Positions 50,074 to 64,000 of a stretch of 64,000 bases of DNA are shown here, piece by piece. The notes beneath the pieces were generated by a model, which made no database searches, was not told the DNA's origin, and saw only the letters and a program-made list of their open reading frames with translations. Origin of the DNA: Cyanidioschyzon merolae (taxonomy: Eukaryota); the NCBI GenBank assembly GCA_000091205.1, contig AP006489.2; one strand, given 5' to 3'. Position numbers and translations under genes: made by a program. How positions within the stretch are numbered: position 1 is the first letter of the stretch; each line of letters starts with the position of its first letter.

Positions 50074-50340
50074 ACAAGCTTGAAACGGATGCGCTCCCAT
50101 TTATCGAGAGCGCACGAGACTGGACGGATGTGTGGTACGCCCGCCTGCCTGCGATTGCGGGTATGAAAAGAGAGATGCCTTTCGGGCAAACCATTGGACT
50201 GGCCTCGGATCAGCATCAGCGTCGAGACGGTACTGACTTGTGAGTTTGAAAGAAGGGCTGACGCTGCAGGAACGCGAAGGTAAAGCTGAATCTGCGAGGT
50301 TGCAGCGGGTTCATGCATGTTCATCTACACCAGTGACAGA

Positions 50341-51703
50341 TTCAAATGGGACGCTAAACGGCTCACTCTGTTCCTGTCTGTCGATTTCTTCGGAATTCAT
50401 TCCTGATTCGTACAGCAGTCTCGACGTGAGAAGCGCGACAATAACGGCTGGCGGATTCATGCCGAATCCAGGAATGCTCCATCGACTTGTCAAGCTGGCG
50501 CGGTGGGTGCTCTCTCTCTCTCTCTCTCCGATCGAATACGTTCTATCGTCAGAGCAGAGATCACTCGCAACGCCCTCGAACACACACTCATACAATAACC
50601 GGTATTCGGATGCAATGCATAGGCGCCCAGGCAGCCACGCTTCTCCTGTACGCACACATAGCATACCCAGAGCAGGCGTGCTTCAAGTCTCCCGTCGTTC
50701 CGGTTCGAGGCAACTCGTGTACACGCGAACGACCAACGCTGGCACGACAAGACGAAACGCTTGACGTCACCGCTTGACGACCTGTTCACAAGCTCGTGCC
50801 CGACGGTCGCTGAACTCGTCACGGCACACGACTGAGTCGCTTCGGAACGCAAGTGCTGCTCGCTGGGTGGCCACGGACGTCACGGCACTCGACAGCGGCA
50901 CGCTGTCTGTGAGGGGATATGCGGCCAGAGGCTTCCGTCTCTGGTGTTGCCGTGCAAAAGCGTCTCGGACTCGGACTGGAGTCATCGCGGTGATCGCTTC
51001 GAGTGGAGAACGCGTCACCGTTTTGCGCCAAAAGCGAACGTAGACGCTTCAGGAGTTCTGGACGTGTTCGCCAGCGCGAGTATTGCCTGCAGCACCTGGT
51101 TCATCGTGGAAACCTGCGTCTCCGTTCCAGAAATCCTCTACGGAACGGAGACGCATGTACCTGCTCGTGTGCAACGGACACGGCACTCGACGAAGCGATC
51201 ACCCGGAAGAAGCGCGTGACAGTAGCGTGCCTCACTAGTCGGAGAAGCGGCGGATGCATCGACGGTAACCTTCGTCGCCCGTCCAGGGCGTGGACCTGGC
51301 GCTGAAGCGAGCGTTCACGAGACACAGGGTAGCGCTCTTAGGAGGGCGTGTGATGCTGGCGGTGCAGCGGTGCAGTGGTGCAGCGGTGCAGCGGTGCATA
51401 TCTGGGTACACCCGGTCATAGCTTAGAGTGATCGCTGCGACCAGCGTACCGCGGCCGTATACGAGGAAGACGAGCGTAGCCATCCGAGTGCAGGTCGCAA
51501 GACAGGTGATCACTTTTCCAGTTGCTGACGGCTGCTCTGAAGACGACAGATAGACCTGTGTACTTCGAGCCGGAAACACACAGTTAGAGAATGAAGCAGT
51601 CCAAGGAAAAGACCCCAGAGGCTTCCGTAGATGATGCAACTGTAAACAGGTCGAAACATTTGTGCATCCACACGTGTTGGAGCACCCGTTTCCTTCCAGT
51701 CTG
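50341..51703 (+). repeat. dispersed repeat, young copy 1 (1363 bp), unclassified probable non-autonomous mobile element
   Basis: Near-identical to 55605..56967 and 60160..61523, with shared termini ttcaaa[t/c]gggacgctaaacgg … cccttccagtctg. It contains internal (CT)n and (GGTGCAGC)n runs and no long ORF. Confidence 0.85.
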
Positions 51704-52262: not shown

Positions 52263-54296
52263 CTAAGGCGCTGATGGCAACGCAGGCACCATTCCAGAAC
52301 GCTCAATCAGCGCCAGTGCCTGCACCACTGTGGCATCATCGTAGGCATCACCAATGAACTGGATGCCTACTGGAAGGTAAACCGGCGGCTCGCTTCCCTG
52401 TGCGTCGGCAGAGGGCACAAGACCTACCGGTGCTGTTCCCGCCGGCAAACCAGCAATGTTTGCCACAAAAGTATAGGTGACGGCTTGCCAGGTCGCCCGC
52501 AGATCCTTGCAAGGTTTCCGATCGGGCCGGAACGCAACCGGAAGCGTATCGGTTGTGGGCAAGGCCAGCACATCCACAATGTTGCGACGAAACAGGGTTG
52601 CCAGTTGCACTCGAAGGGCCGCTCTCGCTCGCCGAGCAACGGCCATATCGGCTCCGGTGATGCCTTTCACCGTGTGCAGAACGAGACGACTCCCGTACTC
52701 AAGAAGCTCGCTGCGTGGTTTGAAGCTCCAGTCTGTGGATAAAAGACATTCGAGGGCATCCAGGGGCAAATAAATTGCTCCAAGAGCTGAGGCAAACGGT
52801 TGCAAAGATATGTGCTCCTGGGGTATCGTCACGAGTTCCGCCCAACCGCGATCCGCGAGCCGATGCAAGGCGTCCAGACCAGTGCGTCGAATCGCCGCCG
52901 AGGAGCATCGCTGCCACTCAGACAATGGTATACCAATGCGGAGCTTTCTCGTGGACCCAACCGCTATTTGTCCGGCATCGTTCAGCGATGCGCTCCATTG
53001 CTCCAAGCGGTCCAGTAGCATCGCCACAGCATGTTTCGCTGAACCTCTCGGAGCGTAACCATCTCCGCTCTCGTCAGCATGCACGAGCAAATGATCCATG
53101 CTCTTCGTGTTGGGTGACGTATCCTGCACCGCGGCGACCAGGAAGGCAACAAGATCAAGCACCGAGACTCCGAGGACGCCACCGTGGCCTACGCTTGAGC
53201 AGGCGATACCGGGGTCACCACGACGCGGAAGCAGAAATGCATGGGTCGGCTTCAATCCGAAAAGGCCATTCCAAGCAGCCGGAATCCGCACGCTACCGCC
53301 ACCATCGGTACCATAGGCAACAGGCACATGCAGCAGCGCGACGCGTGCGACAGCAGCCGCGCTACCCGTTGATGAGCCACCAGCGGCATGCCGCTCGCTA
53401 AAAGCACACGGCGGCATCGCATAGACCTCACTGAAACCGAGCGGGTCGAGTCCAAACTCTGTCATCTTCGTTTTTCCGAGCACAACGGCACCAGCTGCTT
53501 CGAGGCGTTCGATCAAGAGTGCATCCGCGTCGGCGACGCGAGGAGCGTCTCGGTATGGAGGGATCGTATGAATGCGCGTTCCACTGGAGGTCACACGTCC
53601 AGCCACATTGACCGAGTCTTTCACAACGACAAGCACTCCATCCAGGACTGAGAGCGGCTGAGGCTGCGGCTCTCTCGCATAGCGCTGTGCAGAGGCGTTC
53701 GCAGCTCGCCGAGCGCGCTCTTCGAATACCTGTGAAAATGGCGATGGACCCCATGCCGTCATCCCTCCCTGTTCCATCTTCCGGATAGCGCTTAGCGTAG
53801 ATTCCAGGATTTGCAGCGGTGTGCAGACTCGCTGTCGATATAGTTGATGATAGGTTAGGCAGGAGCCGGTGCGGATGCCGCGCTCTTCGAATGCAGTCGG
53901 TGGAGCTGCTTCCTGAACGGAAGCGACTCGCGTTTTCCCAACACTTGCGGAGTATGCTTCGCACAGAGCCCAAACTCGCGCATAGGAGAGCGCTTCTCGT
54001 GGCTGTCGAGTCGCTGAACTGCCATCGATGTGCCGACCCGGCAACGGACGCTCGTCTAGCGCACTCGTAGCGAGTGCCGCGGCGTCGACTGCTGTCGCTG
54101 AACCCTCCGCAGCACCCAGCTCAACGATCGAACGCAGCGTCGTGCATAGCCGGTCGAAGCTGAACAGTCGTTTCGTAAAGGTTGCGGCAAGCCACGAACC
54201 CAGGTTGCCTAGAAGTTCCAGGACCAAAACCAGCACACGGAGCGTTGTGCCGTGGAGTGACGTGAACCGCTTAGGCTTTCTTGGTTGCAAGCTCAT
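52263..54296 (-). CDS. amidase-signature family enzyme (FAAH-like) with N-terminal hydrophobic anchor
   Basis: Amidase signature GGSSTGSAAAVARVALLHVPVAYGTDGGGSVRIPAAWNG with the catalytic Ser-cisSer-Lys context. The N-terminal helix is TLRVLVLVLELLGNLGSWLAA. Total 677 aa. Confidence 0.85.
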   Translation of the reverse strand: MSLQPRKPKRFTSLHGTTLRVLVLVLELLGNLGSWLAATFTKRLFSFDRLCTTLRSIVELGAAEGSATAVDAAALATSALDERPLPGRHIDGSSATRQPREALSYARVWALCEAYSASVGKTRVASVQEAAPPTAFEERGIRTGSCLTYHQLYRQRVCTPLQILESTLSAIRKMEQGGMTAWGPSPFSQVFEERARRAANASAQRYAREPQPQPLSVLDGVLVVVKDSVNVAGRVTSSGTRIHTIPPYRDAPRVADADALLIERLEAAGAVVLGKTKMTEFGLDPLGFSEVYAMPPCAFSERHAAGGSSTGSAAAVARVALLHVPVAYGTDGGGSVRIPAAWNGLFGLKPTHAFLLPRRGDPGIACSSVGHGGVLGVSVLDLVAFLVAAVQDTSPNTKSMDHLLVHADESGDGYAPRGSAKHAVAMLLDRLEQWSASLNDAGQIAVGSTRKLRIGIPLSEWQRCSSAAIRRTGLDALHRLADRGWAELVTIPQEHISLQPFASALGAIYLPLDALECLLSTDWSFKPRSELLEYGSRLVLHTVKGITGADMAVARRARAALRVQLATLFRRNIVDVLALPTTDTLPVAFRPDRKPCKDLRATWQAVTYTFVANIAGLPAGTAPVGLVPSADAQGSEPPVYLPVGIQFIGDAYDDATVVQALALIERSGMVPALPSAP

Positions 54297-55604
54297 GAAC
54301 GCACTGAATCACCACAGCTTTCAGTGGATTCACGTTCAACACGCTGGACAGTGCAGGAACGCTCTGCCCCAATGACATCGCTTCGAATCAATGTGGGGAC
54401 GGGTTCGCGGATACTTGCATTCTCGGTCGATGACAGAAGCGGTATGCAACCTGTGGCACTTCTCTACCTATGCTCTGATGGTTCATGTTCGGCATAGATA
54501 GGTATGGTTGGTGAGGTTATCCCAGGGATTCGAGCTTGCCGCAAATCGGCTGGTGATATCTCGTATTCTGCGAGGCCGATTTTTTGCGGCTCTTGCTGTT
54601 GACACCACCACCACCGTCCGAGTAGCTGCTGTTGCGAACATCTCGGTCTGTGGAAGCACCTGGCTGGGGTAAACGTGAAAAGGCCACGGAATCGTCTAAA
54701 AGGATTTTGTAGACGGAACTTGAACACATATCTGAAACGTGTTTGCCAAGCGAACCTGTGCCCTTGACGTGATGCTGAACCAAGTGCGTACATCGCACGG
54801 TACCTGGCCGGTTTTCAGCATCGATCGATTCTTGTACCCCGAAAAAGGGAGTACGCGTCCGTGCACAAGGCATCAACGTTTAGAGAGCATCTGCATAGAC
54901 CGCAGCTTAACCCCTTCAACCGAGTCGTTCGCCTCGTTCGGATTCCAGGTACGACTCCTGCCGTGTTGACTGTCGAAAACATTCCATGATCGCTTGCTTA
55001 TCAGTACCGCATGTGGCATTACCAATGCAGGTACCTGTTCCGTGAGCCTAATCGTCTACAATCGCACGAGGCACAAGTTTGGTGCCTTGTTTTATATCCG
55101 ATTATCCGGAATGTTGAGCGGTATTGCATGCTCTAGCGCTGGCGAGCATGGACAACGACGATAGACAGAATACCTCGCTGGAATCGGTTATGGAGTGTAC
55201 GCTTTCCTCGCGACGCATAGCGCTCAGATGTCGTGGTGAGGCATACGCTGCGGAGTGTGGTCCCATGCAGACTGCCGGTTAGGATCGGCGTAAACGACGC
55301 ATTTTCGATCCAGTCTCGAAGAAAGGAAGACATTCAGATGATCCGTCGTGGAAACGGGTGCATTTCTGTTTCTTATCAGTCTTTCGAAGCTTTTCGATTG
55401 TACCGTTAGAGATCGCAACGATAGAGGCTACCTCTCACCGGATTGTGAACGGATGTGCGGCATCGACACCACAGGCACAGCTGTTATGCTCGTCTATACA
55501 ATCGCTACGTATCCCAGTTCCAGTCGCAGAACTGCTCCGTTCCCAGCAGAGAGCGATCCATGCTCCGCTCTGATGGTGTTCCAGTGCTCTGAAGCACTGT
55601 AAGA

Positions 55605-56967
55605 TTCAAATGGGACGCTAAACGGCTCACTCTGTTCCTGTCTGTCGATTTCTTCGGAGTTCATTCCTGATTCGTACTGCAGTCTCGACGTGAGAAGCGC
55701 GACAATAACGGCTGGCGGATTCATGCCGAATCCAGGAATGCTCCATCGACTTGTCAAGCTGGCGCGGTGGGTGCTCTCTCTCTCTCTCTCTCCGATCGAA
55801 TACGTTCTATCGTCAGAGCAGAGATCACTCGCTACGCCCTCGAACACACACTCATACAATAACCGATATTCGGATGCAATGCATAGGCGCCCAGGCAGCC
55901 ACGCTTCTCCTGTACGCACACGTAGCATACCCAGAGCAGGTGTGCTTCAAGTCTCCCGTCGTTCCGGTTCGAGGCAACTCGTGTACACGCGAACGACCAA
56001 CGCTGGCACGACAAGACGAAACGCTTGACGTCACCGCTTGACGACCTGTTCACAAGCTCGTGCCCGACGGTCGCTGAACTCGTCACCGCACACGACTGAG
56101 TCGCTTCGGAACGCAAGTGCTGCTCGCTGGGTGGCCACGGACGTCACGGCACTCGACAGCGGCACGCTGTCTGTCAGGGGATATGCGGCCAGAGGCTTCC
56201 GTCTCTGGTGTTGCCGTGCAAAAGCGTCTCGGACTCGGACTGGAGTCATCGCGGTGATCGCTTCGAGTGGAGAACGCGTCACCGTTTTGTGCCAAAAGCG
56301 AACGTAGACGCTTCAGGAGTTCTGGACGTGTTCGCCAGCGCGAGTATTGCCTGCAGCACCTGGTTCATCGTGGAAACCTGCGTCTCCGTTCCAGAAATCC
56401 TCTACGGAACGGAGACGCATGTACCTGCTCGTGTGCAACGGACACGGCACTCGACGAAGCGATCACCCGGAAGAAGCGCGTGACAGTAGCGTGCCTCACT
56501 AGTCGGAGAAGCGGCGGGTGCATCGACGGTAACCTTCGTCGCCCGTCCAGGGCGTGGACCTGGCGCTGAAGCGAGCGTTCACGAGACACAGGGCAGCGCT
56601 CTTAGGAGGGCGTGTGATGCTGGCGGTGCAGCGGTGCAGTGGTGCAGCGGTGCAGCGGTGCACAACTGGGTACACCCGGTCATAGCCTAGAGTGATCGCT
56701 GCGACCAGCGTACCGCGGCCGTATACGAGGAAGACGAGCGTAGCCATCCGAGTGCAGGTCGCAAGACAGGTGATCACTTTTCCAGTTGCTGACGGCTGCT
56801 CTGAAGACGACAGATAGACCTGCGTACTTCGAGCTGGAAACACACAGTTAGAGAATGAAGCAGTCCAAGGAAAAGACCCCAGAGGCTTCCGTAGATGATG
56901 CAACTGTAAACAGGTCGAAACATTTGTGCATCCACACGTGTTGGAGCACCCGTTCCCTTCCAGTCTG
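55605..56967 (+). repeat. dispersed repeat, young copy 2 (1363 bp)
   Basis: About 98% identical to copy 1 by inspection (single-base differences such as gcaggcgtgc versus gcaggtgtgc) and in the same orientation. Confidence 0.85.
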
Positions 56968-57430
56968 GAATTCATGAATACCTTATCTGATCTATATGTA
57001 GAGGTCGCGAGACCCGTCCGAACCCCAACATACGCATATGCGTTTTTTCCTGCACGTTGACGTGTCCATGGGCAGCGCCACTGCCGAAGACATACACGCT
57101 CATGAAACGTGGTATCTGGAGCGGCATCGATGTGATTTCGTAACACTCTACGACATTGCTGCTGACATCGACGCGAGCACAGGGGCATACGCGCTCATCC
57201 GCATCCGACCGTGGAGCCATTTCTGTCATGTGTACCAGATTCAAGAAAAGCCAATTCAAAGCAACCACTTGAAACATAGGGAATTCGTCGTCGTCACTCA
57301 CTTTTGCGTACTTGATCCCTTATTTAACCTGGTTCCCATTGACAATTTGTATGCTTTATGAACCAAAACAGGTCGCGTACGAAAACGAATCTGGCGCGAC
57401 CTTGTTCGAATCGTTTTGGCTTGTACTTGA

Positions 57431-59689
57431 TTGCCCGTGGCTCTTAGGAAGCGTTTCGGTCGGCACGGGGCGTTTCCCATGACTGACGAGCACCAGTCGG
57501 GCACAGCGTGTCAGAGCTCAGCGAGGAAACCGCCCAAGGGAGGTCTGCGACGAAGCACACGCAGCAGGATTCGGGAAGCTCCACCCGAAGACTCACCAGC
57601 GTTGCCGACGCCGCGTACGCCGCAATGGCAGGCCAAGGCGCCCGCTGAAACGCTCTGGAGCCCTTGGCGGGATCAAATAGAGACTGGTTTGGGGTTCGAA
57701 ACGCCGAAAAACTCCGGTAAAGGGGATCGTCGTCGAGGTCACCGTCGAGAGCAGCGGACCAGGCCGGCAGCCGACAAGCGACGCGTTCGCTGGGCGGCCT
57801 CAGTGCGTGGGAAACGCCCGCCGCTGCTCTCGATAGCTGTATCGGTGGCTGGCTGGATCACGCTGGTTATCGTTGCGGTACTTCTTCTGGTGCGTGGGCA
57901 AAAGTGGCAGCAACAGCAAGTGCTGTCGCTTCGGGCGACAACTCGGAGGTACGCGTACGCCACCCTGCTCTGTGATGATGAACGCATGCTCCGGGCAGTT
58001 GCGGCATTGGTGCACTCGCTTCGAGTCCGAGCAAACACCTCCTACCCGATCTTGGTGCTTACCACACCCAACTTGTCAACAGCGGCGTCACAGCATCTGG
58101 AGGCGCTTGGAGCAACAGTAATACGGCGCGAGCCGCTGCCGTATCCGTTTGCCCTGAACGCAGCCCGGCTCCGCGATAACAAACCCTGTCGCTATGCCAA
58201 GTTACACCTGTGGTCGTTAACAACATACGAAAAGATTGTGTTCCTTGATGGAGACACATTGGTTTTGGCACCAATTGATGATCTCTTTGAAAAGTATGAT
58301 GCGCTCGCTGCTGCTCCAGACCTCTATCCGGAGACGTTCAACTCCGGCGTGATGGTGCTCGAACCGCGCCACGATGTGTACGCCTCGATGTTGGCACGAT
58401 ATCGGGAGACACCCTCGTACAACTTGGGCGATCAGGGCTTTCTGAATAGTTTCTTTGGTGAGCAATGGAGAGCGAACCCGAAGCGTTTCCACTTGCCCCT
58501 GGAATACAACACGCTGCTGAAGCTGCGGGAGACCATTCTCTGGGCGAGCCTCCAGCGCCGCGTCCGTGTTGTCCATTTTACTGGAGAAACCAAACCGTGG
58601 AGCTGGCACTTGACCAATTTTCGTGACTGGGATCGTCATATCGATCCTGTCTTCTACTACGAATGGATTCAGATCGACCGATCAGCACGCAACTTATCAC
58701 TTGATGAACCGCACTGGGCCCGTTGCGCTCTGGAAGCCCAGACGCTAGCCATGCACAACGGGAGCCTTGGACAACGCTTTCCGCTTCGCGATCGCTACAG
58801 TGTGGTGCTCAGCACGTATAGCCGCGATGATTTGCTACATAAGCTGTTGCGCATTCATTATCGCCCTGGCCTGTTCCCTGGAAAACCCAAGTCGCGTCAG
58901 AAGGAACAAACATCGGACGCGAGTGCGCTGATCGATAAGGTATTCATTGTGTGGCATGATCCGCAGCGAACACCACCGCCGGACCTTCTTCGTAATCTGC
59001 CGCCGGATCGATTCCTGCTTGTTCAACAGCAGCAGGACTCGCTGAATAACCGCTTTAATCCTCTGGGGCCCGCTCTGCGCACACGAGCAGTGCTCATCGT
59101 CGATGACGATATTCGCATTCATCACGAGGATGCAGCATTCGCTTTCCGAGTCTGGCAGGATAATCCGAATGCGCTGGTTGGCTTCTTCCCGCGTTTTCAC
59201 CGGCGGCATCCTCAGACCGGAACGTATGAGTACCACATTGCTGAGCCCGTGGATCACGATGCGAACGCGAGTCACAGACAGTTCCGTCGCTACTCGATTG
59301 TGCTAACCAAGCACATGTTCATGCGCGCTGACTTTCTCTTCTACTATCGCTGCCTTCTGCCGGATGAACGCATTCATGCTTATGTCGACGAGCATCGGAA
59401 CTGCGAGGATATCGCTTGTCAGTGCATGGTGACCAGTATGGGTGGATCCGCTCCCATCGCCGTTCGTGCGGTGCACCCGGTCGAGGACTACGGCACCCCG
59501 GGTGTAGGCGTTGCCGGTGGTATCAGCGCATCACGGTCTCATTTGGGGTCCCGTTCCCACTGCATTGCGACCTTTTTAGAGACGTTTTGGAAAGGTTCAA
59601 ATGCCCTTCTTTATAATGACGTAATCATGGAGCGTTTTGTGAAGATTCCGTTTGAGAAAAAGCGACTGCGGGACCTGGCGAAAACGTGA
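57431..59689 (+). CDS. type-II membrane glycosyltransferase with fused GT8 (glycogenin/GUX/IPUT1-like) and GT64 (EXTL2/GINT1-like) catalytic domains
   Basis: The N-terminal signal anchor LLSIAVSVAGWITLVIVAVLLLV is followed by a GT8 domain (YATLLCDD…KLHLWSLTTYEKIVFLDGDTLVLAPIDDLF…FNSGVMVLEP…GDQGFLN…KPW). A GT64 domain follows (YSVVLSTYSRDDLL…VFIVWHD…VLIVDDDIRIHHEDAAFAFRVWQD…GFFPRFH…YSIVLTKHMF…CEDIACQCMV), collinear with EXTL2. Confidence 0.85.
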   Translation: MPVALRKRFGRHGAFPMTDEHQSGTACQSSARKPPKGGLRRSTRSRIREAPPEDSPALPTPRTPQWQAKAPAETLWSPWRDQIETGLGFETPKNSGKGDRRRGHRREQRTRPAADKRRVRWAASVRGKRPPLLSIAVSVAGWITLVIVAVLLLVRGQKWQQQQVLSLRATTRRYAYATLLCDDERMLRAVAALVHSLRVRANTSYPILVLTTPNLSTAASQHLEALGATVIRREPLPYPFALNAARLRDNKPCRYAKLHLWSLTTYEKIVFLDGDTLVLAPIDDLFEKYDALAAAPDLYPETFNSGVMVLEPRHDVYASMLARYRETPSYNLGDQGFLNSFFGEQWRANPKRFHLPLEYNTLLKLRETILWASLQRRVRVVHFTGETKPWSWHLTNFRDWDRHIDPVFYYEWIQIDRSARNLSLDEPHWARCALEAQTLAMHNGSLGQRFPLRDRYSVVLSTYSRDDLLHKLLRIHYRPGLFPGKPKSRQKEQTSDASALIDKVFIVWHDPQRTPPPDLLRNLPPDRFLLVQQQQDSLNNRFNPLGPALRTRAVLIVDDDIRIHHEDAAFAFRVWQDNPNALVGFFPRFHRRHPQTGTYEYHIAEPVDHDANASHRQFRRYSIVLTKHMFMRADFLFYYRCLLPDERIHAYVDEHRNCEDIACQCMVTSMGGSAPIAVRAVHPVEDYGTPGVGVAGGISASRSHLGSRSHCIATFLETFWKGSNALLYNDVIMERFVKIPFEKKRLRDLAKT

Positions 59690-60159: not shown

Positions 60160-61523
60160 TTCAAACGGGACGCTAAACGGCTCACTCTGTTCCTGTCTGT
60201 CGATTTCTTCGGAGTTCATTCCTGATTCGTACTGCAGTCTCGACGTGAGAAGCGCGACAATAACGGCTGGCGGATTCATGCCGAATCCAGGAATGCTCCA
60301 TCGACTTGTCAAGCTGGCGCGGTGGGTGCGCTCTCTCTCTCTCTCTCCGATCGAATACGTTCTATCGTCAGAGCAGAGATCACTCGCTACGCCCTCGAAC
60401 ACACACTCATACAATAACCGATATTCGGATGCAATGCATAGGCGCCCAGGCAGCCACGCTTCTCCTGTACGCACACGTAGCATACCCAGAGCAGGCGTGC
60501 TTCAAGTCTCCCGTCGTTCCGGTTCGAGGCAACTCGTGTACACGCGAACGACCAACGCTGGCACGACAAGACGAAACGCTTGACGTCACCGCTTGACGAC
60601 CTGTTCACAAGCTCGTGCCCGACGGTCGCTGAACTCGTCACGGCACACGACTGAGTCGCTTCGGAACGCAAGTGCTGCTCGCTGGGTGGCCACGGACGTC
60701 ACGGCACTCGACAGCGGCACGCTGTCTGTCAGGGGATATGCGGCCAGAGGCTTCCGTCCCTGGTGTTGCCGTGCAAAAGCGTCTCGGACTCGGACTGGAG
60801 TCATCGCGGTGATCGCTTCGAGTGGAGAACGCGTCACCGTTTTGTGCCAAAAGCGAACGTAGACGCTTCAGGAGTTCTGGACGTGTTCGCCAGCGCGAGT
60901 ATTGCCTGCAGCACCTGGTTCATCGTGGAAACCTGCGTCTCCGTTCCAGAAATCCTCTACGGAACGGAGACGCATGTGCCTGCTCGTGTGCAACGGACAC
61001 GGCACTCGACGAAGCGATCACCCGGAAGAAGCGCGTGACAGTGGCGTGCCTCACTAGTCGGAGAAGCGGCGGGTGCATCGACGGTAACCTTCGTCGCCCG
61101 TCCAGGGCGTGGACCTGGCGCTGAAGCGAGCGTTCACGAGACACAGGGTAGCGCTCTTGGGAGGGCGTGTGATGCTGGCGGTGCAGCGGTGCAGTGGTGC
61201 AGCGGTGCAGCGGTGCATATCTGGGTACACCCGGTCATAGCCTAGAGTGATCGCTGCGACCAGCGTACCGCGACCGTATACGAGGAAGACGAGCGTAGCC
61301 ATCCGAGTGCAGGTCGCAAGACAGGTGATCACTTTTTCCAGTTGCTGACGGCTGCTCTGAAGACGACAGATAGACCTGCGTACTTCGAGCCGGAAACACA
61401 CAGTTAGAGAATGAAGCAGTCCAAGGAAAAGACCCCAGAGGCTTCCGTAGATGATGCAACTGTAAACAGGTCGAAACATTTGTGGATCCACACGTGTTGG
61501 CGCACCCGTTCCCTTCCAGTCTG
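60160..61523 (+). repeat. dispersed repeat, young copy 3 (1364 bp)
   Basis: Near-identical to copies 1 and 2 and in the same orientation. Confidence 0.85.
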
Positions 61524-63352
61524 TCATAGGCGTGCAGTAACTTGTTCAGTGATGCATTCCGTTGATGAGGGTGCTCGCGGGCCGTCGCGACGTCAACGCC
61601 CACTTCAAGCAAGCTGCTGGATTCTTGACTTGCTTTCCGCGTTCCTTGCCAGATTTGTCTTGCATGAGCATGTAAGCTGGATCGTACAGAAACGTTGTAC
61701 AAAGCCTAGCGTGGATCAAAGTGCACTGCCCAGTGCCAATGCACGGCAAGTGCTCGCTTCGCATCAAGCGTACGCTGCGTAGCTCCTATGCTGAGAACAT
61801 GCTGGGAAACCGAGCGCTTTACCTTTCACAGGCACGTGCCAAGCACGGGCTACGGCACTGCGTCTTCAGCTGCACAGGCGTTCGTGACAGTGTCGTATCG
61901 CATGAAAATGCAAGCGCTCTTTCTCGCAGTACAAGAGACAACCAGCACGGGTACCATATCGATCGTGATGACGCGTTTATGCTGCCACTTGGCGCCTGTC
62001 ACGCAGCTGGTCAGGTTGCAAGATAGCCAATGACTACACCCGCTTGCGCTCGGTGTTGTGTTGTTTGATAGCTGCCCTGTTCGCAAGTTTGAGTAAACGT
62101 TGTAGCTGCTCTGATCCAAGCAGTCGCACGGCTTCCTGGAGGCCCCGTTCTGATCGTAAACTTTCGAAGCGTTCTTGTAGAACCCGCAGCGGTACGTTCT
62201 TTTCTTCAGAGAGCAGTGTCCATAGCCATTCAGGGTAGGCGGATAACGGCTGCTTTGGCGGTCCTGTTTCGCCCTTGACAATATTAAGCGCGCTCCAGGT
62301 AGTCTCCGTGGCTTCTGACGCCAGCTGGTCTGTGCTTGTTGCGTCGGGAGCTGGACTCGGCTTTTCCGCTCGGTCTGGAGCCTGCTTTCGCGTTTTGGTT
62401 GCAACCCCGCGCCGCACAAGGAACTGGAACCGCTGCCTCAAGGCCCGTACGACGTCTAGCCCTTGCATTCCGTATCCGACGACACCTTCTGACGCAAATA
62501 GAAAAGAAGTTTGGCACCAATGAACGGCAACTACTGCTTTAACAGCGCGCAGCGTCAAGAGCGGTACAATCGACTGAAGAGCATGCGCTTAGGCCATTCG
62601 AACGCTCGTTCACGCGCTCTGCATGAAGCGAACACCGCATGCCGCTCCGGTCGACAAGGCGCTCACAGTGTCGAAACGAGTCCTGACACACACATTGCAC
62701 CTGTTGCTTTATGTCGTGGCTCACGTCATGCCTGGCAGTAGAGACCAGCGAGCACTGGAAAAGTCAGACCGCATCGCATCTGCTCTTCCGCGTATAAGCT
62801 GTCTTGTGGAACGAAATTGTGGACGAAAAATGCCAGAGGTATGTGGACTGCTGGCAGCCCTGCTTGACAACCACCTAGGAACAGTTGCTTGACGACATGC
62901 GTCGAGGTGAGCGTTGCTAGGCAAGACCTGCTCGAGTGCGAAGCATCGCGATCCCTCACGACATCCTATATATTATGATTACTTGGTAGCGAACAATGCT
63001 TCTACTGAACCGTGAGCGTCTACATCGCATTTGACAAGATGAAAGACGTATTTAACTGGACAAAATCAGGGAGAATCGGCTTGCCCGATGAGCGCCTGAG
63101 CACCAATCGCAGCGGTGCACGATTTGATCGCTTTCGAGTCGTGGAAAGCGGTTTGGTCCGAGGGCCGAATCGCGGCCCCTTGAATGAGATGCCATGACGC
63201 GCTTCAACCCTGATTGCGTTCATGAACGATGCTATCGCTTTGGCGGTTTGGATGCAACCACGCAACTGAATCACCGCTAGGTCTGATGTCGTCGGAACGT
63301 TCGCTTGACTCCTCTTTTCGAATAGCGAGTTGCACTTTGTTGCTTGTTCATA

Positions 63353-63882
63353 GACAGGTCTAGCATTTTGTTGGAGTGATCGCTTACGGAATGAGCCGAG
63401 TACTTGTCCCCACTGAAATATTATGATTTAGAAACTCGTAGACAGGTCTAGCATTTTGTTGGAGTGATCGCTTACGGAATGAGCCGAGTACTTGTCCCAA
63501 CTGAAATATTATGATTTAGAAACTCGTAGACAGGTCTAGCATTTTGTTGGAGTGATCGCTTACGGAATGAGCCGAGTACTTGTCCCCACTGAAATATTAT
63601 GATTTAGAAACTCGTAGACAGGTCTAGCATTTTGTTGGAGTGATCGCTTACGGAATGAGCCGAGTACTTGTCCCAACTGAAATAATATGATTTAGAAACT
63701 CGTAGACAGGTCTAGCATTTTGTTGGAGTGATCGCTTACGGAATGAGCCGAGTACTTGTCCCAACTGAAATAATATGATTTAGAAACTCGTAGACAGGTC
63801 TAGCATTTTGTTGGAGTGATCGCTTACGGAATGAGCCGAGTACTTGTCCCAATTGGAATATTATGATTTATAAACGGACAAA
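63353..63882. repeat. 88-bp tandem repeat array, 6 copies (AT-richer satellite-like)
   Basis: The unit gacaggtctagcattttgttggagtgatcgcttacggaatgagccgagtacttgtccc[c/a]actgaaata[t/a]tatgatttagaaactcgta recurs at 63353, 63441, 63529, 63617, 63705 and 63793. The last copy is degenerate. Confidence 0.9.
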
Positions 63883-64000
63883 TTGGATCACCTGTTGATC
63901 GACACGCAGCGGGCTCCCGGTGAAGCACTCGCTTACGCTTACCCATCCGTATCTCTTCGTTGCCGGTCGTATGAACGGTACGGATTCTTCACAGGCTGTT

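Follow-up and report, generated by a model that had tools for sequence, protein, structure and literature searches.

The window analysed here, 64,000 nucleotides of Cyanidioschyzon merolae contig AP006489.2 (assembly GCA_000091205.1), carries the gene CMG174C, whose product joins a glycosyltransferase domain of family GT8 to one of family GT64 in a single polypeptide. CMG174C probably encodes a type II, bifunctional, retaining glycosyltransferase of the secretory pathway that would add two neighbouring sugars to one glycan. This reading draws on the domain architecture, the catalytic motifs, the predicted folds, the conservation of the two domains together and the missing acceptor tyrosine of glycogenin, combined with the published diploid-specific transcription of the gene. 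A bifunctional enzyme that adds two sugars had been put forward in a preliminary description of the DNA and appears the natural reading of two intact, co-conserved domains; the sphingolipid scheme attached to it there is not supported.

The gene is one intronless open reading frame (ORF) on the plus strand (57431..59689), uninterrupted by stop codon or frameshift. Translation from the first ATG, at 57479 and downstream of an in-frame TGA at 57428, gives a protein of 736 residues. The preliminary description had counted 752 residues, starting from a TTG under the bacterial code; its uninterrupted frame stands and its length does not. Residue numbers below refer to the 736-residue protein unless stated otherwise. 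This protein is 100% identical to BAM79674.1 (XP_005535960.1, M1V7C8) of C. merolae 10D, which bears the database name "similar to glycogenin glucosyltransferase". In the available part of Data Set S8, from a paper published in Plant Cell in 2026 (PMC13353863), BAM79674.1 is assigned to locus CMG174C and tagged "GT8(155-375)+GT64(481-712)" with one transmembrane segment (Phobius; dbCAN for GT8). Two reviews, in the passages available, call it CmGLG2 and count it among four glycogenin-like C. merolae genes together with CmGLG1 (CMK020C), PDR1 and MDR1. The GT64 half goes unmentioned in these passages and in those available from other literature on CmGLG2.

Pfam finds both domains in the same frame, each far above its cut-off, which bears out the earlier claim of GT8 and GT64 in one ORF and answers the profile check proposed for each half. 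GT8 (PF01501) scores 69.3 bits against a cut-off of 24.3 over residues 181-391 of the 752-residue ORF (profile positions 5-250 of 253), and GT64 (PF09258) scores 158.2 bits against 21.3 over residues 496-733 of that ORF. Sequence searches of the PDB match the first half to glycogenin-1 (E=2e-35, about 35% identity) and Gat1 (E=8.6e-30), and the second half to EXTL2 (E=6e-24), followed by EXT2 and EXTL3. An AlphaFold2 (AF2) model built on a 77-sequence alignment has a mean predicted local distance difference test score (pLDDT) of 81.4 and a predicted template modelling score (pTM) of 0.77. Both domains exceed a pLDDT of 90, apart from a low-confidence insertion at about residues 461-480 of the GT64 domain. 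Matched separately with Foldseek, the halves resemble glycogenin (template modelling (TM) score about 0.8) and EXTL2 (TM 0.84), whereas the whole chain superposes on EXTL3 or EXT1/EXT2 only with a root-mean-square deviation (rmsd) of 16-18 Å. For the predicted model, this distance from the bi-domain exostosins rules out an exostosin-like arrangement of the two domains.

The active-site motifs of both domains are in place. The GT8 domain had been described as complete with its DxD motif and the GT64 domain as complete with a DDD metal site, and alignment to glycogenin D102/D104 and to the "VDDD" of EXTL2, respectively, confirms both. The GT8 half retains D257/D259, K241, N288, D318, Q319, H366 and K372, which align with the metal, uridine diphosphate (UDP) and sugar ligands of glycogenin; H366 aligns to glycogenin H212, the distal Mn2+ ligand. 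The GT64 half retains LNNRFNP, DDD542-544, NCEDIA and R692/C695, aligned with the motifs of EXTL2 and EXT2. All of these catalytic residues are invariant in 10 orthologs ranging from red algae to Rhodotorula. Conservation among 30 diverse fusion proteins is 27-30 of 30 for the GT64 residues and about 24-26 of 30 for those of GT8; by site, the Asp residues of the GT8 DxD are present in 24-25, those of the DDD in 27-29, D644 in 29 and R692 in all 30.

The N-terminal region predicts a type II membrane protein. A basic tail (27 Lys/Arg and 12 Asp/Glu in residues 1-115; AF2 pLDDT below 50 for residues 1-118) precedes the sole strongly hydrophobic segment of the protein, LLSIAVSVAGWITLVIVAVLLLV, where AF2 predicts a helix at 124-152. 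Six Lys/Arg lie within 15 residues on the N-terminal side of this segment and three on the C-terminal side, and the catalytic part is therefore predicted, by the positive-inside rule, to face the lumen. An N-terminal hydrophobic segment is found in most orthologs of CMG174C, and five N-x-S/T sequons lie C-terminal to the anchor. Cysteines are also conserved among the 30 fusions (C165 in 26, C237 in 24, C625 in 30, C642 in 28 and C695 in 28), and cytosolic glycogenin lacks them. These extra cysteines in both halves would fit an oxidising lumen.

In the mechanism that we propose, CMG174C would be a single-pass type II protein of the Golgi or endoplasmic reticulum with two luminal, metal-dependent, retaining GT-A domains, both active, and in each an acidic metal motif would hold the nucleotide sugar. 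A UDP-sugar would be the donor for GT8, which would attach its sugar in alpha linkage; glucose (Glc), galactose (Gal) or xylose (Xyl) would best suit the glycogenin/Gat1-like pocket of this domain. At the position of glycogenin Leu214 the pocket has Thr368, where the alpha-galactosyltransferase Gat1 has Ser, a change from Leu that the literature on Gat1 has treated; the position of glycogenin Gln164 is retained. We infer that such a pocket suits a neutral hexose or Xyl better than glucuronic acid (GlcA). A second sugar, likewise alpha-linked, would come from the GT64 domain. Mannose (Man) is among the sugars that characterised GT64 enzymes transfer. Of the known members, EXTL2 uses UDP-N-acetylglucosamine (UDP-GlcNAc) or UDP-N-acetylgalactosamine (UDP-GalNAc) on GlcA-terminated acceptors, and GINT1 adds GlcNAc to glycosyl inositol phosphoceramide (GIPC). 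Because the domains are tethered, the product of one site could be the acceptor for the other. Golgi tandem enzymes that couple two transfers on one glycan are known in EXT (GT47-GT64), LARGE (GT8-GT49) and chondroitin synthase (GT31-GT7). As target we envisage a glycoprotein or polysaccharide of the cell surface or wall, produced chiefly in the walled diploid; the secreted wall proteins specific to the diploid phase are candidate acceptors.

UDP-Glc dehydrogenases and one UDP-GlcNAc pyrophosphorylase are present in C. merolae, and UDP-GlcA, UDP-Xyl and UDP-GlcNAc are therefore available; a lack of UDP-GlcA as an argument against GlcA transfer is ruled out by the dehydrogenase genes. Orthologs of one of these dehydrogenases, CMT471C, are up in the diploids of two sister genera in the tables available from PMC13353863.

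The proposed link to the cell wall comes from published RNA sequencing of the two life-cycle phases. In the tables available from PMC13353863, CMG174C reaches 35-43 transcripts per million (TPM) in the cell-walled diploid MS1, against 0.84-1.0 TPM in an MS1-derived haploid and 0.32-0.82 TPM in 10D, both of which are wall-less. The corresponding log fold changes (logFC) between the diploid and the two wall-less haploids are 5.7 and 6.2, and just two glycosyltransferase genes are diploid-predominant in C. merolae according to the same source. The immediate neighbours CMG172C, CMX044C and CMG177C show no differential expression there, and regulation of CMG174C is thus gene-specific. The cyanidiophyte wall is described in PMC13353863 as largely proteinaceous and made without cellulose synthase. 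With two diploid-predominant genes among about 32 glycosyltransferases in total, CMG174C offers a tractable genetic entry to cyanidiophyte wall chemistry.

The published model of CmGLG2 is a different one: a true glycogenin whose GT8 domain self-glucosylates and primes cytosolic floridean starch, with GT64 accessory or irrelevant. We consider this very improbable, although it has evidence of its own. The reviews report an approximately 2-fold increase in starch when CmGLG2 is overexpressed from a strong promoter and a phylogeny in which it clusters with yeast and rabbit glycogenin, and the GT8 half does resemble glycogenin-1 to the degree given above. The residues on which self-glucosylation depends are nevertheless replaced. 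By alignment, the glycogenin acceptor Tyr195 (PDB numbering; Tyr194 in the literature) corresponds to Arg350 and Tyr197 to Thr352, and no conserved Tyr occurs in the equivalent loop among the 30 fusion proteins. Mutation of glycogenin Asp160 cripples that enzyme. This residue (Asp159 in the literature), needed for self-glucosylation, corresponds to Asn315, and Asn is found in 22 of the 30 fusions; the comparison was made through 1zcv, which is the D159N mutant, the wild type carrying Asp. In addition, a 115-residue tail and a membrane anchor stand ahead of GT8, whereas the nearest GT8-only relatives start the domain at residue 1-5, and an intact GT64 domain is conserved together with GT8.

Expression also argues against a role in starch priming. 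The starch studies were presumably done in 10D, the standard laboratory haploid strain. In the tables of PMC13353863, CMG174C transcripts in 10D stay below 1 TPM, and if the starch work used that strain, CMG174C is therefore not its normal starch primer. Yeast complementation is given for the paralog CmGLG1 only in the passages available from the reviews, which place CmGLG1 with the plant PGSIPs in the published phylogeny. Lacking the acceptor Tyr and Asp160, carrying an anchor and silent in haploids, the CMG174C protein, as judged from its sequence and expression, is not a glycogenin, and it is best read as something other than a cytosolic starch primer that glucosylates itself. The reinterpretation corrects a functional label, that of starch-priming glycogenin, under which CmGLG2 is cited in at least seven papers.

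Several observations weigh against a bifunctional enzyme of the diploid wall. It can explain the doubling of starch on CmGLG2 overexpression only as an indirect or overexpression effect. Asn315 occupies a site at which mutation is harmful to glycogenin, according to PDB entry titles, and the GT8 chemistry could accordingly differ or be weaker. The ortholog in Galdieria partita, a GT8 plus GT64 protein labelled "Glycogenin-1" in the expression table of PMC13353863, shows a diploid excess of only about 2.2-fold and reaches about 26 TPM in wall-less haploids, as far as that source goes; a connection with the wall may therefore not apply throughout.

The fusion extends well beyond C. merolae. It is present in all four cyanidiophyte genera (Cyanidioschyzon, Cyanidiococcus, Cyanidium and Galdieria), and the survey of other genomes proposed in the preliminary description found it also in several fungal lineages and a pelagophyte. 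The named fungal members are Jimgerdemannia (Endogonales), Mycotypha (Mucorales), the chytrids Rhizophlyctis and Irineochytrium, Dipodascopsis tothii, and Microbotryomycetes including Rhodotorula; a microsporidian member comes from Amphiamblys (OIR58147.1, with the GenBank name "glycosyl transferase, families GT8 + GT64"), and the stramenopile member is that of Pelagomonas. A HMMER search of 1.84 billion cluster representatives returned 5231 matches, and the best 150 of these include about 70 proteins from outside the Cyanidiophyceae in which GT64 comes after GT8; most of these also have a hydrophobic N-terminal segment. Many representatives match query residues of about 155-730 in a single stretch. 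Pfam finds both domains in 8 of 10 sampled fusion members; the GT8-like parts of the Amphiamblys and lycophyte proteins are detected with CMG174C as query only, not by Pfam. Source names vary, from glycogenin to EXTL3 (the Galdieria "EXTL3 isoform") and lipopolysaccharide glycosyltransferase. A frameshift or assembly artefact in C. merolae is ruled out, as the continuous architecture recurs in four genera and in fungi. A JGI metagenome representative (P0001) differs from the window protein by one residue, at about position 298 in the GT8 domain (RHAVYASM versus RHDVYASM), which shows that natural variants of CMG174C are present in hot-spring metagenomes.

Several members depart from this pattern. 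In one annotation of Cyanidiococcus yangmingshanensis, the protein is split into a 446-residue GT8 part (KAF6000820.1, P0016) and a 281-residue GT64 part (KAF6000819.1, P0018), both named "Exostoses (Multiple)-like 3"; in another assembly it is continuous (KAK4533599.1, P0017, 735 residues), and the two-gene version probably reflects an artefact of annotation or a frameshift rather than a true separation of GT8 from GT64. A protein of the lycophyte Diphasiastrum complanatum (P0073) has a permuted order, GT64 followed by two GT8-like regions. The permuted order recurs in the cluster members of P0073 and in P0071, P0075, P0083, P0091, P0092, P0095 and P0121, with Diphasiastrum as the sole named source. 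The GT8-like parts of the permuted forms match the GT8 domain of CMG174C at E values of about 1e-13 to 1e-27 and fall below the Pfam GT8 model, which suggests that GT8 and GT64 were joined independently a second time. About 5 of the 30 fusions (for example P0064, P0156 and P0158) have lost the DxD and His ligands of GT8 and kept all GT64 catalytic residues. By analogy with the inactive domains of EXT1/EXT2, these members may carry pseudo-GT8 domains. C. merolae has a second GT64 protein, CMP307C, named "similar to Reg receptor"; its Cyanidiococcus ortholog, with GT64 at 404-695 and two transmembrane segments, shows no change in expression between phases in the available tables of PMC13353863.

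We found no paper in the literature that discusses a GT8-GT64 fusion. The architecture itself is already known, from the supplementary table of PMC13353863 and the GenBank product name in Amphiamblys; we found no paper that reinterprets the function, describes how widely the family occurs or connects it with the walled diploid phase. The fusion serves as a "Rosetta stone": it places a glycogenin-like GT8 and a GT64 in a single pathway in red algae, in several fungal phyla and in a stramenopile, and this suggests a conserved glycan that has gone unrecognised.

The same architecture could also serve a polymerase. In that case both domains would act repeatedly, in the manner of LARGE or EXT1/EXT2, and build a heteropolysaccharide of the form [alpha-X-alpha-Y]n for the diploid wall. 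The EXT and LARGE precedents speak for this, as do two intact, co-conserved active sites, the place of CMG174C among the two diploid-predominant glycosyltransferase genes of an organism with poorly known wall chemistry, and the UDP-Glc dehydrogenase orthologs raised in sister-genera diploids (both of the latter from the available tables of PMC13353863). We nonetheless hold it to be unlikely. Such a polymer has not been reported, and an older analysis of the Cyanidium wall found about 50% protein plus polymers of Gal, Man, Xyl and Glc. The predicted domain arrangement, at about 16-18 Å rmsd, is unlike that of EXTL3 or EXT1/2, and an obligate two-activity polymerase is hard to square with the members (about 5 of 30) whose GT8 lacks its DxD. 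A wider form of this proposal, in which the family would be a third eukaryotic type of bi-domain polymerase beside EXT and LARGE, making an alternating alpha-linked heteropolysaccharide of the cyanidiophyte diploid wall and of early-diverging fungal walls or spore walls, is speculative and to be viewed with similar doubt. Were CMG174C a polymerase, the starch phenotype of "glycogenin CmGLG2" would be an overexpression artefact.

The sphingolipid scheme of the preliminary description takes its model from plants. There, the GT8 enzyme IPUT1 and then the GT64 enzymes GINT1 or GMT1 act consecutively on GIPC. Transferred to CMG174C, this would make the GT8 domain a GlcA transferase acting on inositol-phosphoceramide (IPC) and would give GT64 the following step, the attachment of GlcNAc or Man. 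Plant enzymes of both families do act on GIPC, GINT1 with UDP-GlcNAc as donor; the enzymes that supply UDP-GlcA and UDP-GlcNAc are present in C. merolae, and the predicted Golgi type II topology is compatible. To our knowledge, Mucoromycota, in which the fusion family occurs, are reported to be without IPC. We found no report in the literature of IPC or GIPC in C. merolae itself. Among solved structures, the GT8 half is nearest to glycogenin and Gat1, and in the published phylogeny, as far as the reviews present it, this half groups with glycogenin and not with plant PGSIPs. A profile search with the GT8 half returned almost exclusively short anonymous metagenomic proteins and gave no subfamily placement.

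The GT64 half is equally non-committal. It scores the same against Arabidopsis "GT64 C3", which we take to be At1g80290, of uncharacterised function (91 bits), as against animal EXTL2 (92 bits), and no protein named GINT1 or GMT1 occurs in its top 120 profile matches. An apparent affinity to plant "GT64 C3" in the profile search was dropped, given the near-identical pairwise scores and a profile that itself held plant-like sequences. Near-zero expression in haploids, as tabulated in the available part of PMC13353863, would also be odd for a core membrane-lipid enzyme. With subfamily affinities and haploid silence opposed to it, the IPUT1 to GINT1/GMT1 analogy is not supported, and synthesis of a GIPC head group by CMG174C is improbable.

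The positions of the features of CMG174C and of the repeats around it are collected in the table. The preliminary description placed the gene between two young 1.36-kb repeats; both flanks do carry a copy, and the family is an interspersed one with a third copy that had been missed. The copies lie about 5.3 and 4.6 kb apart, with a single gene in each interval: the minus-strand ORF at 52263-54296 in one and CMG174C in the other. A (CT)n tract and a (GCGGTGCA)5 microsatellite occur in every copy, and no convincing coding potential was seen in the three window copies. A mobile element, a segmental duplication and a regulatory module are the candidates for what the repeat is. Regional or repeat-driven regulation of CMG174C is ruled out, with flat neighbours and a third copy beside another gene. 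Near the end of the window lies a tandem array (63351-63875, extending over about 63260-63963) with an 88-bp unit in about 6 copies at 98% identity. Downstream of CMG174C on the same chromosome are CMX045C, CMX046C and CMG220C. In the available tables of PMC13353863, two genes located a few genes downstream are strongly diploid-specific as well, CMX045C for a C2H2 zinc finger protein (logFC about 5) and CMX046C for a secreted protein (logFC 9.7 versus MS1 Ha3 and 5.5 versus 10D); the hedgehog-like genes at the end of the chromosome show the opposite, haploid-specific pattern.

Table. Features of CMG174C and flanking 1.36-kb repeats, in window coordinates
Feature	Position	Strand	Remarks
CMG174C coding sequence	57479..59689	+	736 aa + TGA, no intron; ORF list, 100% match to BAM79674.1
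N-terminal tail, aa 1-115	57479..57823	+	Basic, Pro/Ser/Thr-rich, predicted disordered, presumed cytosolic
Membrane anchor (signal-anchor), aa 116-138, LLSIAVSVAGWITLVIVAVLLLV	57824..57892	+	Kyte-Doolittle 2.75
GT8 domain, aa 155-377, glycogenin-like GT-A fold	57941..58609	+	Pfam, PDB match, Foldseek, dbCAN
GT8 DxD metal motif D257-G-D259	58247..58255	+	Aligns to glycogenin D102/D104
Self-glucosylation-loop equivalent, aa 343-358 (YNTLLKLRETILWASL)	58505..58552	+	Without acceptor tyrosine
HFTGETKPW motif	58574..58600	+	His366 metal ligand, Thr368 (glycogenin Leu214 position), Lys372
GT64 domain, aa 432-731, EXTL2-like GT-A fold	58772..59671	+	Pfam; EXTL2 E=3.6e-25; Foldseek
GT64 DDD metal motif D542-D544	59102..59110	+	Aligns to EXTL2 "VDDD"
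GT64 NCEDIA motif, including Cys642 and Asp644	59399..59416	+	Aligns to EXTL2 NCDDIA and EXT2 NCEDIA
GT64 RSHC motif, Arg692 + Cys695	59552..59563	+	Aligns to EXTL2 RSYC
1.36-kb direct repeat, upstream copy	55602..56967		98.8% identical; genomic context only
1.36-kb direct repeat, downstream copy	60160..61523		98.8% identical
1.36-kb direct repeat, third copy	50338-51703		98.8% identical

Each half of CMG174C has well-studied relatives. Glycogenin (GYG1/Glg1) and Gat1 are the nearest solved relatives of the GT8 half, with the DxD, His, Lys, Asp and Gln ligands in common. Unlike glycogenin, CMG174C has no acceptor Tyr, has Asn at Asp160, and possesses an anchor, extra conserved cysteines and an added GT64 domain; at the Leu214 position, glycogenin, Gat1 and CMG174C carry Leu, Ser and Thr, respectively. 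The exostosins EXT1, EXT2 and EXTL3, together with EXTL2, share the GT64 domain with its DDD, NC(D/E)DIA and RS(Y/H)C motifs, and the EXTL2 fold matches at the TM score given above. They are Golgi type II, Mn-dependent, retaining enzymes, as is predicted for CMG174C. However, the N-terminal partner in EXT1, EXT2 and EXTL3 is a GT47 domain of GT-B fold, whereas that in CMG174C is a GT8 domain of GT-A fold, and the whole-protein superposition is poor. We know of no red alga that makes heparan sulfate.

A parallel in layout is LARGE1/LARGE2, also a type II protein with an N-terminal retaining GT8 followed by a second glycosyltransferase domain in one chain. LARGE, the matriglycan polymerase, is a Golgi tandem enzyme with an alternating polysaccharide as its product, but its second domain belongs to GT49, unlike the GT64 of CMG174C. 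LARGE is absent from the PDB sequence matches of the CMG174C protein at E<=1, and the GT8 halves of the two are therefore only distantly related. Plant IPUT1 (GT8) and GINT1/GMT1 (GT64) bring the same two CAZy families to bear on one glycan in the Golgi. These are separate proteins, however, to whose subfamilies the halves of CMG174C show no specific affinity, and the diploid-restricted expression tabulated in PMC13353863 ill suits a core lipid pathway. The uncharacterised fusions of Amphiamblys, Galdieria, Rhodotorula and others have the same domain order, anchor and catalytic motifs. On sequence grounds, CMG174C is thus a member of CAZy GT8, of CAZy GT64 and of the GT8-GT64 fusion family; it is neither a glycogenin nor an exostosin nor a LARGE. 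With it, the small set of Golgi bi-domain glycosyltransferases gains a fourth domain pair.

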